From: Escherichia coli
GTDB taxonomy: Bacteria > Pseudomonadota > Gammaproteobacteria > Enterobacterales > Enterobacteriaceae
Strand: one strand, 5' to 3'
DNA: 64,000 nt
Assembly (NCBI RefSeq): GCF_024502345.1
Contig: NZ_JALDNN010000001.1
The notes below the pieces were generated by a model. It saw only the letters and a program-made list of their open reading frames with translations, did not search any database and had not been told where the DNA came from. The first letter of the stretch is position 1, and the number at the start of each line of letters is the position of its first letter. This document shows positions 1-40,167 of the stretch, in pieces. The position numbers were made by a program, and so were the translations under genes.

Positions 1-788
1 TTGCACCTGCTGCATCGCCTCTCGCTTCGACCATCGTTCAGACCCCGGACGACGCGATTGTGGCGGGCTTCACCTCTATCCCTTCACAAGGGGATAACAT
101 GCCTGCTTACCATGCCAGACCAAAGCAAAGCGATGGCCCACTGCCAGTGGTCATTGTAGTGCAGGAAATTTTTGGCGTGCATGAACATATCCGCGACATT
201 TGTCGCCGTCTGGCGCTGGAGGGGTATCTGGCTATCGCACCTGAACTTTACTTCCGCGAAGGCGATCCGAATGATTTTGCCGATATCCCCACGTTGCTTA
301 GCGGTCTGGTAGCAAAAGTGCCTGACTCGCAGGTGCTGGCCGATCTCGATCATGTCGCCAGTTGGGCTTCCCGCAACGGCGGCGATGTTCATCGTTTAAT
401 GATCACCGGATTCTGCTGGGGTGGACGTATCACCTGGCTGTATGCCGCGCATAATCCACAGCTAAAAGCCGCAGTGGCGTGGTACGGCAAACTGACGGGC
501 GACAAGTCGTTGAATTCACCGAAACAACCTGTTGATATCGCAACCGATCTTAACGCGCCGGTTCTCGGCTTATATGGCGGTCTGGATAACAGTATTCCGC
601 AGGAGAGCGTTGAAACCATGCGCCAGGCGCTGCGGGCTGCTAATGCGAAAGCAGAGATTATCGTGTACCCGGATGCCGGGCATGCATTCAACGCTGATTA
701 TCGCCCGAGCTATCATGCCGAATCTGCGAAAGATGGCTGGCAGCGTATGCTGGAATGGTTTAAGCAGTATGGTGGGAAGCGGAGTTAG
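1..788 (+). CDS. ysgA: Dienelactone hydrolase family protein, 5' end outside window
   Basis: Open frame runs from window edge (..APAASPLASTIVQTPDDAIVAGFTSIPSQGDN..) to stop at 788; alpha/beta hydrolase with GFCWGG nucleophile elbow; K-12 synteny next to metE. Confidence 0.85.
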   Translation, partial: APAASPLASTIVQTPDDAIVAGFTSIPSQGDNMPAYHARPKQSDGPLPVVIVVQEIFGVHEHIRDICRRLALEGYLAIAPELYFREGDPNDFADIPTLLSGLVAKVPDSQVLADLDHVASWASRNGGDVHRLMITGFCWGGRITWLYAAHNPQLKAAVAWYGKLTGDKSLNSPKQPVDIATDLNAPVLGLYGGLDNSIPQESVETMRQALRAANAKAEIIVYPDAGHAFNADYRPSYHAESAKDGWQRMLEWFKQYGGKRS

Positions 789-1181
789 TTTCCTCTTAGT
801 CTATATTTGAGATGGTGAGTGAACGAGTGCGTTTTGCTGCCATCTCTGTCCCCCAAAAAATAATCAGTATGAATTGATTGGAGATTACGACTCCGCTATT
901 TGACCTTAAAAAAGTCGGCAAGTCATAGTCATAAATGAGTCTCTTCAATGGAAGACACCTTAGAGATTTACCATCAACTCCCATTCACAAACAAACATTA
1001 ATTATTATCAACACATTCACATTAATTATAAATCATCTCAGACCTTCCTGATAAAAAGATATTAAAGTGAAACATTTTGTTTTTCACATTTTAGTTCATC
1101 ACTTTTAGGCGTAAATAAAGGTAAAAAAAACAACAATACTATTTCTCTTTCACAAAAGAATTAACAAAAGGTTTTTCAAGG

Positions 1182-1657
1182 ATGAGTGATATTATTTACC
1201 TGACCATAACCGGAGAACAACAAGGATGTATTTCCTCTCGTTGTGGAACGAGCGCATCAATAGGTAATCGCTGGCAGATTGGCCATGATGATGAAATCTT
1301 CGCGTTCTCGCTCTCTAATAGTATTACGAATACAGGCAAAGGGTCATAATTGCATGGCCTTAGTTTCTGTAAATTGATTGACAAAAGCTCCCCGTTACTT
1401 ATTAACGCTATTAACAATAACGAGCAGTTGTTCATGGAGTTTGACTTCTATCGGATCAATAGGTTTGGTCGATGGGAGAAATATTACAACATTCAACTCC
1501 GCGGCGCGCTCTTATCAGCAATCAATCACCTGTTTACTGAGAACAATCTGGATACAGAAGCCATCACTGTCAGTTATGAATATATACTCTCCAGGCATCT
1601 GATTGCTAATACTGAATTTAGTTATTTGGCATTTCCCGATAACTACAACCGTCTGTT
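1182..1657 (+). pseudogene. hcp: T6SS Hcp-family tube protein gene, disrupted by in-frame TAA (1347-1349) and truncated at 1657 by IS903-like insertion
   Basis: Translation MSDIIYLTITGEQQGCISSRCGTSASIGNRWQIGHDDEIF..GKGS*LHGLSFCKLIDKSSPLLINAINNNEQLFMEFDFYRINRFG.. matches Hcp family signature (KLIDKSSP, FxFYRIN); N- and C-parts are in the same frame separated by TAA. Confidence 0.7.
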
Positions 1658-2714
1658 GGCTTTGTTGAATAAATCGAACTTTTGCTGAGTTGAAGGATCA
1701 GATCACGTATCTTCCCGACAACGCAGACCGTTCCGTGGCAAAGCAAAAGTTCAAAATCACCAACTGGCCCACCTACAATAAAGCCCTCATCAACCGTGGC
1801 TCCATAACTTTCTGGCTGGATGATGAAGCTATTCAGGCCTGGTATGAGTCAGCAACACCTTCTTCACGAGGCAGACCTCAGCGCTATTCTGACCTTGCCA
1901 TCACGACTGTGCTGGTCATTAAACGCGTATTCAGGCTGACCCTGCGCGCTGCGCAGGGCTTTATTGATTCCATTTTTTCTCTGATGAACGTTCCGCTACG
2001 CTGCCCGGATTACAGCTGTGTCAGCAGGCGGGCAAAGTCGGTTAATGTCAGTTTCAAAACGCCCACCCGGGGTGAAATCGCACACCTGGTAATTGATTCC
2101 ACCGGGCTGAAGGTCTTCGGTGAAGGCGAGTGGAAAGTCAAAAAGCATGGCCAGGAACGCCGCCGTATCTGGCGTAAGCTGCATCTCGCCGTTGACAGTA
2201 AAACACATGAAATCATCTGCGCTGACCTGTCGCTGAACAACGTTACGGACTCAGAGGCCTTCCCCGGGTTAATCCGGCAAACCCACCGGAAAATCAGGTC
2301 AGCCGCCGCCGATGGCGCTTACGATACCCGGCTATGTCACGATGAACTGCGGCGTAAGAAAATCAGCGCGCTTATCCCTCCCCGAAAAGGTGCGGGTTAC
2401 TGGCCCGGTGAATATGCAGACCGTAACCGTGCAGTGGCTAATCAGCGAATGACCGGGAGTAATGCGCGGTGGAAATGGACAACAGATTACAACCGTCGCT
2501 CGATAGCGGAAACGGCGATGTACCGGGTAAAACAGCTGTTCGGGGGTTCACTGACACTGCGTGACTACGATGGTCAGGTTGCAGAGGCTATGGCCCTGGT
2601 ACGAGCGCTGAACAAAATGACGAAAGCAGGTATGCCTGAAAGCGTGCGTATTGCCTGAAAACACAACCCGCTACGGGGGAGACTTACCCGAAATCTGATT
2701 TATTCAACAAAGCC
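1658..2714 (+). mobile_element. IS903-family (IS5 family) insertion sequence, 1057 bp, 18-bp terminal inverted repeats, flanked by 9-bp direct target duplication CCGTCTGTT (1649-1657 and 2715-2723)
   Basis: Left end GGCTTTGTTGAATAAATCG at 1658, right end GATTTATTCAACAAAGCC ending 2714; identical 9-mers on both flanks read directly from sequence; single DDE transposase ORF inside. Confidence 0.9.
1735..2658 (+). CDS. IS903-family DDE transposase (307 aa if GTG start at 1735; six-frame ORF extends to 1690)
   Basis: IS5-family transposase motifs (DSTGLKVFGEGEWKVKKHG..RRIWRKLHLAVD); lies inside the inverted-repeat-bounded element. Confidence 0.8.
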   Translation: MAKQKFKITNWPTYNKALINRGSITFWLDDEAIQAWYESATPSSRGRPQRYSDLAITTVLVIKRVFRLTLRAAQGFIDSIFSLMNVPLRCPDYSCVSRRAKSVNVSFKTPTRGEIAHLVIDSTGLKVFGEGEWKVKKHGQERRRIWRKLHLAVDSKTHEIICADLSLNNVTDSEAFPGLIRQTHRKIRSAAADGAYDTRLCHDELRRKKISALIPPRKGAGYWPGEYADRNRAVANQRMTGSNARWKWTTDYNRRSIAETAMYRVKQLFGGSLTLRDYDGQVAEAMALVRALNKMTKAGMPESVRIA

Positions 2715-2852
2715 CCGTCTGTTTATACCACGGCCAAAAACTAAAGCTGGTAATGGTTCAAAACACTTAATAGTAAAGCGGTTGGCAGACTGCTTGCTGC
2801 TGGCGGCATATACAATGGGAATATCGAAGGATTCAGGGAAACAGCAGACAAG

Positions 2853-3395
2853 TTGGGGGGAGATGCACCTGCTGGTTACGATCAATTTATGGATAACAAA
2901 GGGTTACTCATCGCTGGTGCTTCAATAGTTGCTGGAGCAGTTCTGGGGAGAATGAGACTCCCTGATTTGGAATCACTTGAGCATTTCGGAGCCAGAGGAG
3001 CAGTATCAGGAAGACCATTTAATCCCGACCTTGCCGGTGGTCCAATAGAAAATCTGACGACAGATGGCGTAACAATCAACAGGGAAGGTATCGCTATTGT
3101 TGAAAAACACATAGCCAGATTTGGTCATGACCCTGTAAATGAAGTGATGATCAATAGACTGAAAGACATTGAGAAAGGAAAAATCCCCCCAGAACAAGTA
3201 GATCTTAACTTCTATACTCATGAGTGTCGGGAATATCAGCGTTACTGTAATCTTGGTTGGGAAACAGGACAACCTGATGGTGACGCAGGCTATGCACTCT
3301 GGAATCATACGCATACTGCTACTCTAGAAGATTATAAACTTAAGGGAGAACTTAATGACTTATACCACCAGGATGCACTTGACTATGATAACTGA
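2853..3395 (+). CDS. Orphan toxin-like C-terminal domain ORF (possible extension domain of the disrupted Hcp, Hcp-ET type); frame is open back to 2754 without ATG
   Basis: 180-aa ORF with TTG start and no ATG upstream in frame, directly downstream of hcp/IS; overlaps the next small ORF; no catalytic motif recognised by eye. Confidence 0.35.
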   Translation: MGGDAPAGYDQFMDNKGLLIAGASIVAGAVLGRMRLPDLESLEHFGARGAVSGRPFNPDLAGGPIENLTTDGVTINREGIAIVEKHIARFGHDPVNEVMINRLKDIEKGKIPPEQVDLNFYTHECREYQRYCNLGWETGQPDGDAGYALWNHTHTATLEDYKLKGELNDLYHQDALDYDN

Positions 3396-3630
3396 AACTG
3401 AAATTAACGTACTGAAAGTTATGGCTGAGAAAGATATAAACTGGAACTGGATGAATCTCGATCGCACACTATCCATAAGGCAAATTCCAGGATTCGGTAA
3501 TGTTGTTAACATTGTTAACAAATTAGCTAACGAGGGTTTGGTTATTATTGAGGATAGCGGACATAAGTCTATGCCTCACTACCACGTTACTGAAAAGGGA
3601 TACAATTTCGTGAAAAGTGAGAATAAATAA
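3385..3630 (+). CDS. Small ORF in immunity-protein position (81 aa from ATG 3385; alternative start 3355)
   Basis: ATG overlaps the last codons of the upstream ORF (ATGATAACTGA arrangement), typical of translationally coupled toxin-immunity pairs; function not recognisable. Confidence 0.3.
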   Translation: MITETEINVLKVMAEKDINWNWMNLDRTLSIRQIPGFGNVVNIVNKLANEGLVIIEDSGHKSMPHYHVTEKGYNFVKSENK

Positions 3631-3776
3631 CGTAGCGTTGATTACTGAACAAATCGCTCAGGATTATATTTTGCGTAAAAATGATTCGGTTATTTCTGTA
3701 TCTGAACGGGCGCAGATAGCAAAATGGCTTCCGGTGATGGAAGCCATCAGATTATTGGCAAAGTGCGCGTTGTTCA

Positions 3777-3808
3777 TGCCGGATGCGGCGTGAACGCCTT
3801 GTCCGGCC
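3777..3808. repeat. REP (repetitive extragenic palindrome) element
   Basis: GCCGGATGCGGCGTGAACGCCTTGTCCGGCC palindromic unit. Confidence 0.6.
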
Positions 3809-3914
3809 AACAAAACTCAAAAATTCAATAAATTGCATAAATTATGTAGGCCTGGTATCAGGCAGTTTTGCCTCTTTCATCGTACTGCAATTTACAGTGA
3901 CTCGTTAATATTCA

Positions 3915-6176
3915 TCATCCCCGACGCAAATTCTGCGCCGCCTGCACCATGTTCGCCAGTGCCGCGCGGGTTTCTGGCCAGCCGCGCGTTTTCAGGCCAC
4001 AGTCCGGGTTGACCCACAGGCGCTCTGCCGGAATGCGTTTTGCCGCTTTCTTCAGCAAGGCTTCAATCCATTCCACGCTCGGTACGTTTGGCGAGTGAAT
4101 GTCATAGACGCCTGGACCGATTTCATTCGGATAATCAAACTCTTCAAACGACTCCAGCAACTCCATGTCGGAACGCGAGGTTTCGATGGTGATGACGTCT
4201 GCATCCAGTGCCGCAATCGAATCCATGATGTCGTTGAACTCGCAATAACACATGTGAGTGTGGATTTGTGTGTCATCTTTCGCCACGGCGGCGTTGATAC
4301 GGAAGGCCTCCACGCCCCACTGGAGATATGCATCCCAGTCGCTACGACGCAGCGGTAAACCTTCGCGCAGCGCCGGTTCATCAATCTGGATGATGCCAAT
4401 TCCTGCGGCTTCCAGGTCCGCCACTTCATCACGCAGCGCCAGCGCAATTTGTTTGGCGATGGTTTCACGGCTGACATCTTCACGCGGGAACGACCAGCAG
4501 AGAATGGTCACCGGGCCAGTCAGCATCCCTTTCACCGGTTTATCAGTCAGAGATTGCGCATACTTCGCCCACTCCACGGTAATCGGTGCCGGGCGGCTAA
4601 TGTCACCAATGACAATCGGTGGCTTCACGCAGCGGGAACCGTAGCTCTGTACCCAACCGTTTTGCGTAAAGACAAATCCGTCGAGGTGCTCGCCAAAGTA
4701 TTCCACCATGTCATTACGCTCGGCCTCGCCATGTACCAGCACATCCAGTCCCAAACGTTCCTGTTCAACAATGGCCTGCTTGATATGTTCCGCAATGCCC
4801 GTGCGGTAGTTGTTGGCGTCGAGATTACCCTTTTTGAAATCCAGACGCAGGGTACGAATTTCCGTGGTTTGCGGGAAGGAACCAATCGTGGTGGTCGGCC
4901 ACGCTGGCAGTTTAAAACGCGCACGCTGGGCTTCGGCACGCACTTCATAGACATTCGCACGCTGGCTGTCCTGGGCGGTGATCGCCGCCAGACGCTTTTC
5001 TACTGCCGGGTTATGTACACGAGTAGAGTGACGACGCGCCTGAATTGGAGCGCTCCACTCTGCCAGAGCTGCCGTATCACCACTGTTCAGCGCATCTCGC
5101 AGCAGTGCCAGTTCATGACATTTTTGCAGGGCGAAGGCAAACCAGCTTTTCACTTCTGCATCAAGACGCGTTTCCACGCTCAGGTCGATGGGGCTGTGCA
5201 GCAACGAGCAGGAAGATGCCACCCACAAATCACGTTTGCCGACAATGTCCTTAATTTGCGCATATTTCTCAGTAAGATCGGCGCGCCAGACGTTACGACC
5301 ATTGATCAGACCCGCAGACAGCAGCCAGTCAGAAGGCAGGCGCTTGTGCAGTTCAACAACGTCATCTTTACCATGTACAAGGTCCACATGCAGCCCCTGA
5401 ACAGGCAGCGCAGTAATCGTGTCGAGATTTGGCGTTACGCCTTCAAAATAGGTGGTCAGCAGCAGTTTCACCTGTCCCTGGAGCGCGTCGTAAGCGGGTT
5501 TGTATGCGTCCAGCCACGCCTGTGGTAGTTCCAGTACCAGCGCGGGTTCATCAATCTGTACCCACTCGATGCCGCGTTTCGCCAGTTCTGCCAGCACTTG
5601 CTGATAAACCGGCAGAATGTCGTTCAGCAGGCTAAGGCGGTCAAACTGTTCACCTTTCACTTTCCCCAGCCACAGGTAAGTAACCGGCCCCAGCAGCACA
5701 GGCTTAACGTTGTGGCCCAGCGCCAGCGCCTCGTCCACTTCCTCCAGCAGCTGCGTCCAGGTCAGTTTGAACTGTTGGCCTTTAACGAACTCCGGCACCA
5801 TGTAGTGATAGTTGGTGTTAAACCATTTGGTCATTTCCGCTGCCGCCGCAGGTTCGCCAGTCGGCGCACGTCCACGACCAATACGGAACAGGGTGTCGAT
5901 ATCTACCGAACCGTCTTTGTTCTGATGACGTGGCGGAACATTACCCAGCAGCAAACTGGTGGTCAGTACATGATCGTACCAGGCAAAATCGCCCACCGGC
6001 AGCAGGTCGATACCCGCTTGCTTTTGTTGATCCCAGTGACGAGCACGCAGTTCACGCCCTACTGTCAGCAGTTCTTCACGCGTGGAGTTCCCCGCCCAAT
6101 AACTTTCTTGCGCTTTTTTCAGCTCGCGACGCAGGCCAACGCGAGGGAAACCGAGGGTGTGATTCAATATTGTCAT
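3915..6176 (-). CDS. metE: Cobalamin-independent methionine synthase
   Basis: 753-aa ORF, N-terminus [29 protein letters not shown] typical of MetE; divergent from metR as in E. coli. Confidence 0.97.
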
Positions 6177-16895: not shown

Positions 16896-16919
16896 CTTAC
16901 TCACAGCGACATCGTATAG

Positions 16920-17062
16920 TTACAGCCAGTTCTTGCGCTTAAAGTACAGATACGGTGCCAGGCCCGCGAGGATCATAAAGATAATCGCGCCTGGGTAGCC
17001 GAAACTCCACTTCAGTTCTGGCATAAACTCAAAGTTCATGCCATAGCTGGAGGCAATCGGCG
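16920..17062 (-). pseudogene. Duplicated, diverged 3' fragment of corA (last ~47 codons, about 95 percent identical to 19416-19558)
   Basis: Encodes [48 protein letters not shown], near-identical to the CorA C-terminus; homology ends abruptly near 17062. Confidence 0.85.
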
Positions 17063-17233
17063 TAGGAAAAAGTTTCCTAATCGGTAAATTCAATATTTTG
17101 TTATTAACAATGAGCAAGACCAATCATTAACGACGTTCTCTTCAGAGATGTAATGAAAAAATGTGAAGTGTACTTCTTTTTTAAATATTTTTTTACCCTA
17201 GCATTTGTTCTCAAATTGGGTAATGACTCCAAC

Positions 17234-17737
17234 TTATTGATAGTGTTTTATGTTCAGATAATGCCCGATGACTTTGTCATGCAGCTCCACCGATTTTGAG
17301 AACGACAGCGACTTCCGTCCCAGCCGTGCCAGGTGCTGCCTCAGATTCAGGTTATGCCGCTCAATTCGCTGCGTATATCGCTTGCTGATTACGTGCAGCT
17401 TTCCCTTCAGGCGGGATTCATACAGCGGCCAGCCATCCGTCATCCATATCACCACGTCAAAGGGTGACAGCAGGCTCATAAGACGCCCCAGCGTCGCCAT
17501 AGTGCGTTCACCGAATACGTGCGCAACAACCGTCTTCCGGAGCCTGTCATACGCGTAAAACAGCCAGCGCTGGCGCGATTTAGCCCCGACGTATCCCCAC
17601 TGTTCGTCCATTTCCGCGCAGACGATGACGTCACTGCCCGGCTGTATGCGCGAGGTTACCGACTGCGGCCTGAGTTTTTTAAATGGCGGAAAATCGTGTT
17701 GAGGCCAACGCCCATAATGCGGGCGGTTGCCCGGCAT
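17234..17737 (-). CDS. insB: IS1 InsB (expressed as InsAB' transposase by -1 frameshift)
   Basis: 167-aa ORF typical of IS1 InsB, overlapping insA 3' end. Confidence 0.95.
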
Positions 17738-17931
17738 CCAACGCCATTCATGGCCATATCAATGATTTTCTGGTGCGTACCGGGTTGAGAAGCGGTGTAA
17801 GTGAACTGCAGTTGCCATGTTTTACGGCAGTGAGAGCAGAGATAGCGCTGATGTCCGGCGGTGCTTTTGCCGTTACGCACCACCCCGTCAGTAGCTGAAC
17901 AGGAGGGACAGCTGATAGAAACAGAAGCCAC
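17656..17931 (-). CDS. insA: IS1 InsA
   Basis: 91-aa [46 protein letters not shown].. identical in character to IS1 InsA. Confidence 0.95.
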
Positions 17932-18029
17932 TGGAGCACCTCAAAAACACCATCATACACTAAATCAGTAAGTTGGCAGCATCACCCTCAAATTGATATT
18001 GAGCTTAAATATAACCAAGGAAAATGTAA

Positions 18030-18886
18030 ATGAATAACACATTACTTCCATCAATTAATATTCCCTGTACACTTTTCGAAACTATTAGTTTATTTGATGA
18101 TTATTCTGCTGATGATATGCAATATGGTGATATGGTGATATGGTAGAACAAGATTTTCTCTCACTCGGCCTAAGCGATATCTCAGCAAAAGTTGATCCTT
18201 ACAGACTTATTAAATACCATTTCCCTAGCCCAGGTTCTATTAATGTTGCTTTTAGTGCCTCAAGTTCCGGAACAAAAATATCACAACGTGAATGCACTGA
18301 TATTTTATTTGCAGAAATGAAAGAACTAGCAAAAATGTTTTCCTTTTTTGGACAATATAAAACACTTATCGAAGATCTGATTGAACATTTTAGATATGGA
18401 AATGGCAGCAATTTTCATAGCCAACAATTAAATTTATCTTTTCATGAAAAAATAAATAAATATGGTTATAATAGTCCAATACGAATAATCAAAGAATGTA
18501 TCGAAAATGGCATTAATTCAACTCCCTCGACAGGATACCAACCTCTTATCCTGCAAAGCATTAAAACCAAATTACTTTCATCAAGACTAAATAAATTTAA
18601 TGACTTCGAGGACAGTTTTAATGGCTTAGGAATCAGTGTTCATGATATTTCAGCTCAAAAAATATCTCTTTTAAGTTTTCAAAAATACGCTATAGGATGG
18701 AGTGCAACAATTCATTTTGTAGCACAGGACCACTTCGGTCTTGATGTAACTGATATCAAAAACAAGACTTACAGCAAATATAGATTTTTTCGCATATGGT
18801 TCTTTTTACAACGGCATAAAGACTTTGCTTTCAAACCTTTTTTCACCAATTTTAACACTATCGAAAGAATCGAAAATTATCTATGA
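18030..18886 (+). CDS. Hypothetical protein, first gene of accessory two-gene cassette; currently split: 38-codon leader ORF (18030-18146) plus 248-aa ORF (18140-18886) separated by an 8-bp tandem-repeat frameshift
   Basis: ATG 18030 preceded by AAGGA at 9 nt; removing one 8-bp repeat unit fuses the two ORFs into about 283 aa; AT-rich; no recognisable family motif by eye. Confidence 0.55.
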
Positions 18887-19374
18887 AAAGCAAACTCCAG
18901 AAAATTATATTATGTTTATTTCTTCTATGCTGCATCTATAATTTATGGACATTGCGTCCTGTACAGATTTTGTATACATACTCTGATGCTGGCAATTCAG
19001 TCTTTCTGGTCGTTGATCATCTGCCATGGACTGACAGCGATAAAATAAATTGGTATCTGAAGCATCAGAATGAAATTAAAAATCAACATCCCCTACCAGA
19101 AGGTAGTTGGCATACCTGGTATGTCATTGATATCGGTAATGGCTTCACTGACTATAAAAAATATATCGAAGGGCCGTATGAAGATCTCTACTGTTTCCCG
19201 ACAATTAAGAGCAATGATAATTGCATCGTGAAAAATTACTTAATGGTTATTAATGAATACCCTTATCGTAACACTCATATTGTTATTAACGATTTTACTG
19301 AGTATCAATTAACACAAGAAAATAAAATAGAGCGAGTTTTCAATCCGCATGACTTTAAAAAAGACAATTTTTAG
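18883..19374 (+). CDS. Hypothetical signal-anchored/exported small protein (163 aa), second gene of cassette, translationally coupled (ATGA overlap)
   Basis: N-terminal hydrophobic segment KIILCLFLLCCIYNLW; start overlaps stop of upstream gene; AT-rich. Confidence 0.6.
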   Translation: MKSKLQKIILCLFLLCCIYNLWTLRPVQILYTYSDAGNSVFLVVDHLPWTDSDKINWYLKHQNEIKNQHPLPEGSWHTWYVIDIGNGFTDYKKYIEGPYEDLYCFPTIKSNDNCIVKNYLMVINEYPYRNTHIVINDFTEYQLTQENKIERVFNPHDFKKDNF

Positions 19375-19408: not shown

Positions 19409-19415
19409 ACTCATA

Positions 19416-38379: not shown

Positions 38380-40035
38380 ATGGAATTTTCGTTTTCACCC
38401 AAACTTCTTGTTGTTGCTGTCGCCGCCGCTCTTCCTCTCATGGCCAGCGCAGCAGATACCCCGTCAACTGCCACCGCACGCAAAGGCTTTGCCGGATACG
38501 ATCACCCAAACCAGTATCTGGTTAAACCGGCGACCACTATTGCCGACAACATGATGCCAGTAATGCAGCATCCGGCGCAGGATAAAGAAACCCAGCAGAA
38601 GCTGGCAGAACTTGAGAAAAAAACCGGTAAGAAACCGAATGTGGTTGTTTTCTTGCTGGACGATGTGGGCTGGATGGACGTCGGTTTTAACGGTGGCGGC
38701 GTGGCGGTAGGTAACCCTACACCAGATATCGACGCCGTTGCCAGCCAGGGGCTGATTTTAACTTCGGCGTATTCTCAACCAAGCTCTTCCCCAACCCGCG
38801 CCACTATTCTCACCGGACAATACTCCATCCACCACGGCATTCTGATGCCGCCAATGTATGGGCAACCGGGCGGGCTGCAAGGGTTAACCACGCTGCCGCA
38901 ACTGCTGCACGATCAGGGCTACGTCACCCAGGCCATCGGGAAATGGCATATGGGGGAAAACAAAGAGTCGCAGCCGCAGAACGTTGGCTTTGATGATTTC
39001 CGTGGCTTTAACTCGGTGTCTGATATGTACACCGAATGGCGCGATGTTCACGTAAACCCGGAAGTGGCCCTGAGTCCGGACCGTTCTGAATACATCAAGC
39101 AATTACCATTTAGCAAAGATGACGTTCATGCGGTGCGCGGCGGCGAACAACAGGCCATTGCCGACATTACGCCGAAATATATGGAAGATCTGGATCAACG
39201 CTGGATGGAATATGGCGTTAAGTTCCTCGACAAGATGGCGAAGAGTGATAAGCCTTTCTTCCTCTATTACGGCACTCGCGGCTGTCACTTCGATAACTAC
39301 CCGAACGCCAAATATGCGGGTAGCTCTCCGGCACGCACCTCGTATGGCGACTGCATGGTGGAAATGAACGATGTGTTCGCTAATCTGTATAAAGCACTGG
39401 AGAAAAACGGTCAGCTTGATAACACGCTGATTGTCTTTACCTCCGATAACGGACCGGAAGCCGAAGTACCGCCGCACGGACGCACACCGTTCCGTGGTGC
39501 GAAAGGATCTACCTGGGAAGGCGGCGTTCGCGTTCCGACTTTCGTGTACTGGAAAGGGATGATCCAACCGCGTAAATCTGACGGTATTGTCGATCTGGCA
39601 GATCTCTTCCCTACCGCGCTGGATCTGGCAGGGCATCCTGGCGCGAAAGTGGCGAATTTAGTGCCGAAAACCACCTTTATCGATGGTGTGGACCAGACAT
39701 CTTTCTTCCTGGGAACAAATGGTCAGTCTAACCGTAAGGCCGAGCACTACTTCCTCAACGGTAAACTCGCTGCTGTGCGTATGGATGAATTCAAGTATCA
39801 CGTCCAGATTCAGCAACCTTACGCTTATACCCAGAGCGGATATCAGGGTGGATTCACCGGCACAGTAATGCAAACAGCCGGATCGTCGGTGTTTAACCTC
39901 TACACCGATCCGCAGGAGAGCGACTCTATCGGCGTGCGCCATATTCCGATGGGTGTACCGCTACAGACCGAAATGCACGCGTATATGGAGATCCTGAAAA
40001 AATATCCACCACGCGCGCAGATTAAATCTGATTAA
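38380..40035 (+). CDS. aslA: Arylsulfatase (Ser-type sulfatase)
   Basis: 551-aa ORF with signal peptide and sulfatase signature [11 protein letters not shown] (S-x-P-x-R). Confidence 0.9.
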
Positions 40036-40062
40036 GTCGGCGCTATCGCTGAGATCTGCCTT

Positions 40063-40167
<105 letters not shown>

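Follow-up and report, generated by a model that had tools for sequence, protein, structure and literature searches.

Between ysgA and metE, the 64,000-nucleotide stretch of the Escherichia coli contig NZ_JALDNN010000001.1—hereafter called the window—carries a broken gene for a fusion of the type VI secretion protein Hcp with a C-terminal extension toxin (Hcp-ET). Its open reading frame (ORF) starts with the ATG at 1182 and codon 56, at 1347-1349, reads TAA. With high confidence, this TAA is a real nonsense mutation and the oldest lesion in a decaying Hcp-ET gene. Translation of 1182-1657 in a single frame yields 55 residues, a stop and a further 102 residues, in accordance with the first-pass annotation of this DNA, which had described the segments 1182-1346 and 1350-1657 as sharing one frame and being parted only by the TAA; its coordinates, frame and codon number are correct. 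The features of the broken gene, including an inserted insertion sequence (IS), are as follows:

1182-1346, plus strand: codons 1-55 of the hcp-ET pseudogene, the N-terminal Hcp part (TIGR03344 positions 1-51, E 1.7e-14; 100% identical to the tssD pseudogene of strain FDAARGOS_943)
1347-1349, plus strand: premature ochre stop TAA (Gln56 to stop), C-to-T at 1347, context TAAT (from the alignment column and the allele counts)
1350-1657, plus strand: codons 57-158 of the pseudogene, which cover the remainder of the Hcp domain in the frame of 1182-1346 (TIGR03344 positions 68-161, E 3.4e-20), ending at the IS
1649-1657: left 9-bp target-site duplication CCGTCTGTT (direct repeat, spacing 1066)
1658-2714, plus strand: IS903B (IS5 family), 1057 bp, with its transposase ORF at 1690-2658 and inverted repeats at 1658-1690 and 2682-2714
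2715-2723: right 9-bp target-site duplication CCGTCTGTT (direct repeat)
2724-2756, plus strand: hcp-ET linker codons following the IS, which continue the original frame if the IS and the duplication are taken out (the reconstructed translation matches the intact protein to ...KTKAGNG)
2757-2758, plus strand: site of a 1-nucleotide deletion, the third inactivating lesion (TTT in intact alleles, TT in the window; gap column after 2756)
2759-3395, plus strand: remainder of the linker, followed by the hydrophobic segment and the C-terminal toxin domain, the ORF 2853-3395 being open but separated from the Hcp part (from the ORF list and annotation)

Both halves of the interrupted Hcp region match the NCBIfam TssD/Hcp1 profile separately and in collinear order, the N-terminal one thus being Hcp-like, as the first-pass annotation had assumed. 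The intact orthologue exceeds the cut-offs of both TIGR03344 (125.8 bits against 58.9, residues 1-147) and PF05638 (T6SS_HCP; 52.7 bits against 23.5, residues 6-135), the latter match spanning codon 56, and the solved Hcp structures 6a2v and 3he1 are matched at E 1e-14 and 1e-12, respectively. Intact copies, found in several E. coli lineages, encode proteins of 382 amino acids (allele range 377-382) that consist of the Hcp domain and a C-terminal toxin extension, followed by a small immunity-like gene. The approximately 230 residues past the Hcp domain comprise a linker shared in conserved form by many Hcp fusions of enterobacteria, followed by a hydrophobic stretch and a C-terminal module. 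Since the last is attached to unrelated N-termini as well, in Pantoea and Atlantibacter, it fits a polymorphic toxin module; the Pfam search with the toxin domain gave no match at E<=10, and neither did the search against PDB sequences. RefSeq annotation (by the pipeline PGAP) names the toxin remnant of 150-161 amino acids 'colicin'.

To judge from this architecture, the gene is an orphan type VI secretion Hcp-toxin fusion and not a plain hcp. Hcp-ET proteins, in which Hcp carries a C-terminal extension toxin accompanied by an immunity gene, are known from Enterobacteriaceae (reviews PMC6730261 and PMC6099711, summarising Ma et al. 2017). The intact orthologues resemble them in the N-terminal Hcp/TssD domain, the long C-terminal extension and the overlapping small downstream ORF, and also in that the gene lies outside any type VI secretion system (T6SS) cluster, like other orphan Hcp-ETs; the inspected ORFs and annotated genes of the 64-kb window contained no recognisable T6SS cluster. 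The Hcp part is, moreover, ~74-75% identical to that of a very common E. coli Hcp fusion of 392 amino acids (P0086), the C-terminus of which is unlike and appears HNH-like by eye. The differences from the known Hcp-ETs consist in the toxin domain lacking a Pfam or PDB match and in the window copy being a pseudogene hit three times. Because of the TAA at codon 56, the IS903B after codon 158 and the frameshift at 2757-2758, no uninterrupted protomer frame is left, and the window copy is, as far as can be read from its sequence, a non-working member of the Hcp/TssD family, i.e. its pseudogene.

Concerning the origin of the stop, the window sequence was freed of the IS and of one duplication copy and aligned with eight other alleles. 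Position 1347 is occupied by C in the intact gene and by T in all the TAA genomes aligned as well as in the window. Codon 56 in other E. coli alleles is CAA, in one case CAT, and the corresponding residue in Citrobacter and Salmonella homologues is Q or H. With CAA in the intact orthologue, the change at codon 56 is CAA to TAA, one transition, and the lesion is accordingly read from the alignment as a single, inherited C-to-T substitution of Gln56. The ancestral codon CAA is among those suggested in the first-pass annotation. A weak terminator-like hairpin with a T-rich tail (1340-1361) overlaps the TAA; in comparison with the C allele, the T allele adds the pair T1347-A1354 to it, which is probably incidental.

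The frequency of both alleles was determined in 5,426 complete E. coli genomes by means of a 55-mer that had the variable position in the middle, where no 28-base megablast seed could miss it. The C allele (CAA) was found in 825 genomes and the T allele (TAA) in 15, the latter including nine O121 or O121:H19 Shiga toxin-producing E. coli, an O103 strain, NCTC9064, a horse isolate and two FDA-ARGOS strains. A difference of one base could in principle stem from a sequencing or assembly error, in which case the true codon of the window would be CAA; the identical T is, however, present inside a perfectly matching 55-mer in fifteen independently assembled complete genomes, and FDAARGOS_943 equals the window over ~4.1 kb around the TAA. 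The probability of such an error is thus negligible, and this explanation was rejected.

The stop has been flagged before: RefSeq (PGAP) marks identical alleles as pseudogenes with the remark 'internal stop', and in this respect the gene is an ordinary, already known pseudogene. The RefSeq tssD pseudogenes I6H00_RS27655 in FDAARGOS_943 and I3S_RS30100 in O121 RM8352 share the gene, the locus and the TAA with the window. The former is 100% identical over the gene and has the T deletion in common with the window; IS903B is missing from all of these pseudogenes, and FDAARGOS_943 has an IS1 in the ysgA-hcp spacer instead. The allele of FDAARGOS_943 is the closest relative of that in the window. 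The IS1A at the 3' end of ysgA in FDAARGOS_943 (2962-3659 of that locus, L001), where ysgA measures 783 nucleotides compared with 813, represents another independent IS insertion in the islet.

As far as the remaining two lesions are concerned, the inserted element exhibits all the features of IS903B: the length of 1057 bp, terminal inverted repeats, an IS5-family DDE transposase (match to NF033579 with E 6e-107 and 357 bits) and a 9-bp target duplication; it is 100% identical to copies annotated as 'IS5-like element IS903B'. The loss of one T at 2757-2758 puts the toxin domain, still open as the frame 2853-3395, out of register with the Hcp part. The first-pass annotation had listed the TAA and the IS as two lesions, which both stand; that account is to be extended by the T deletion and by the recognition of the gene as an Hcp-toxin fusion accompanied by an immunity-like gene.

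The order of the three events can be approached through the other carriers of the stop, eight of the 15 TAA genomes having been compared base by base and four of these eight having a 1-nucleotide deletion in common with the window. In the alignment, the lesions are distributed as follows:

TAA only: O121 RM8352, NCTC9064 and O103 ML775
TAA and T deletion: FDAARGOS_943, FDAARGOS_944 and LR536431
TAA and a different deletion, of a G at 2855: A30
TAA, T deletion and IS903B: the window only

All 15 T-allele genomes are without the IS insertion, and a 56-mer across the hcp/IS junction was found in none of the 5,426 complete genomes. The TAA and the IS are therefore separate events, as already proposed in the first-pass annotation, with the nonsense mutation being the older of the two. 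The nesting of the lesions across the TAA genomes points to the order nonsense, frameshift, IS903B, which is the simplest history. The sequence of the window itself would be the same had IS903B entered first and the nonsense mutation arisen later in an already disrupted gene; that order would, however, require precise excision of the IS in every other TAA carrier, none of which has the junction. Given also the nested distribution listed above, it is extremely improbable and was rejected.

Whether the stop arose once is a somewhat different matter. The TAA allele is found on two haplotypes differing at 7 shared sites in 1.4 kb; one origin of Q56* is the parsimonious reading, albeit not a proven one. 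Together, the stop Q56*, the T deletion and IS903B provide a short, ordered series of lineage markers that could be used in annotation and strain typing. It should be pointed out that the general biological weight of the stop is little, this being one more decayed accessory gene with a stop already flagged in RefSeq.

With regard to the consequences, translation would end after residue 55—a position that in Hcp homologues lies just before the conserved "G-x-R-x-H" strand—and the predicted product would be devoid of the toxin as a whole and of profile positions 52-167, the greater part of the Hcp domain, so that neither a complete Hcp fold nor a toxin would be possible. In the gene, presumably dead by then, the T loss at 2757-2758 and afterwards IS903B at 1658-2714 with its 9-bp duplication accumulated; a frameshift and an IS following a nonsense mutation fit the neutral decay of such a gene, and we would infer loss of function with later neutral decay.

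One detail of the sequence weighs against this loss of function, namely that a TTG (1350) directly follows the stop, with an AAGGG stretch 6 nucleotides upstream, so that re-initiation might give an N-terminally truncated product. In genomes with the TAA only, e.g. O121:H19, the stop could then leave a function, by readthrough or by a restart at TTG 1350 yielding a truncated Hcp-toxin, and the frame of the toxin domain is indeed open and nearly unchanged in the TAA-only alleles. The base following the stop is, however, T, and UAAU terminates translation efficiently in E. coli, which makes readthrough unlikely. A product restarted at the TTG would be without the first 56 residues, which align with conserved N-terminal residues of 6a2v and 3he1, and the TAA alleles gained frameshifts twice independently as well as an IS, as expected of a dead gene. 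A retained function is thus very unlikely, and for the window a restart is of no consequence owing to the IS and the frameshift. The loss of function by Q56* remains the preferred interpretation.

The islet between ysgA and metE, which flank the hcp-toxin gene, is AT-rich, with a GC content of 0.32-0.45 compared with 0.54-0.56 in the flanks; ysgA ends at 788 and metE is encoded on the opposite strand. The features surrounding the pseudogene are:

60-788, plus strand: ysgA, a member of the dienelactone hydrolase family that borders the islet on the left, with a 5' end at or before the window start (from the ORF and from orthologous loci annotated as ysgA)
3385-3630, plus strand: small intact ORF of 81 amino acids, identical to WP_000627421.1 and overlapping the toxin stop codon by 11 nucleotides (annotated as a coding sequence in every orthologous locus)
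3915-6176, minus strand: metE, right flank of the islet

Judged solely by its position, the 81-residue ORF is probably the cognate immunity gene. No variable column was seen in 3172-3630 across the nine aligned alleles, the ORF being unchanged even though the toxin gene is broken. In CFT073, the immunity-like ORF co-varies with the toxin type; this strain has two immunity-like paralogues (5137-5394 and 5469-5714 of its locus, L004), the second of which resembles the type of the window.

The region 1101-1657 is present in 846 of the 5,426 complete genomes, in all of them chromosomal, single-copy and annotated as tssD; besides the 15 TAA genomes, roughly 45 reach at least 99% identity to the window over this region. 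Apart from Q56*, the gene has been independently inactivated in other lineages by another frameshift, by W98* (TGG to TAG) in 285 complete genomes, including CFT073 (locus L004, 4007-5140), Nissle 1917 and the type strain ATCC 11775, by E133* (GAA to TAA) in MFDS1019527 (locus L014, 1879-3027) and by an IS3-family insertion in the O145 RM9873 copy (locus L003, 4081-6015). At least 300 of the 846 carrier genomes thus have a premature stop, brought about by three independent nonsense mutations, to which frameshifts and IS insertions are to be added. These null alleles are similar to that of the window in that a premature stop or an insertion has disabled the ysgA-metE gene; they differ in the positions and events as well as in the toxin or immunity variants, the CFT073 type being an allele of 377 amino acids.

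The dead allele of the window resides on a segment shared with FDAARGOS_943. Positions 1-5225 are identical in both except for one single-nucleotide polymorphism (757) and the IS elements; from 5226 onwards, inside metE, the divergence amounts to ~1.2%. This jump, placing the dead allele on a common segment with a bounded end, marks a recombination edge at position ~5226, beyond which the rest of the window has a history apart from that of the segment comprising ysgA, hcp and the 3' part of metE. With the dead allele being identical in a genome of ~1.2% divergent backbone, homologous recombination may spread it. It may be speculated, rather tentatively and with the odds against it, that the toxin gene is lost under selection, and not through drift alone, and the immunity ORF kept ('keep the shield, drop the sword'), with the dead allele possibly spreading also by homologous recombination. 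The recurrent inactivation of the toxin gene along with a persisting immunity-like gene bears on the gain and loss of contact-dependent weapons in E. coli lineages.

Elsewhere in the window, the best complete E. coli genomes match the part 14000-38000 at only ~98.1-98.7% (mean over joined pieces). Two segments are absent from FDAARGOS_943: 27616-30182 (ORFs 27960-28937 and 28934-30256), in place of which that strain has a DKNYY-family pseudogene remnant, and 38519-40097 (ORF 38380-40035), where it has a truncated arylsulfatase. Between rarD and corA there is a copy of IS1 (17219-17987, minus strand), adjoining both a 136-bp duplicate of the corA 3' end region (16916-17051 and 19413-19547, 94% identity) and a two-gene insert (18140-19374), the FDAARGOS_943 counterparts of which are annotated as a YPO3983-family protein and a DUF943 protein.
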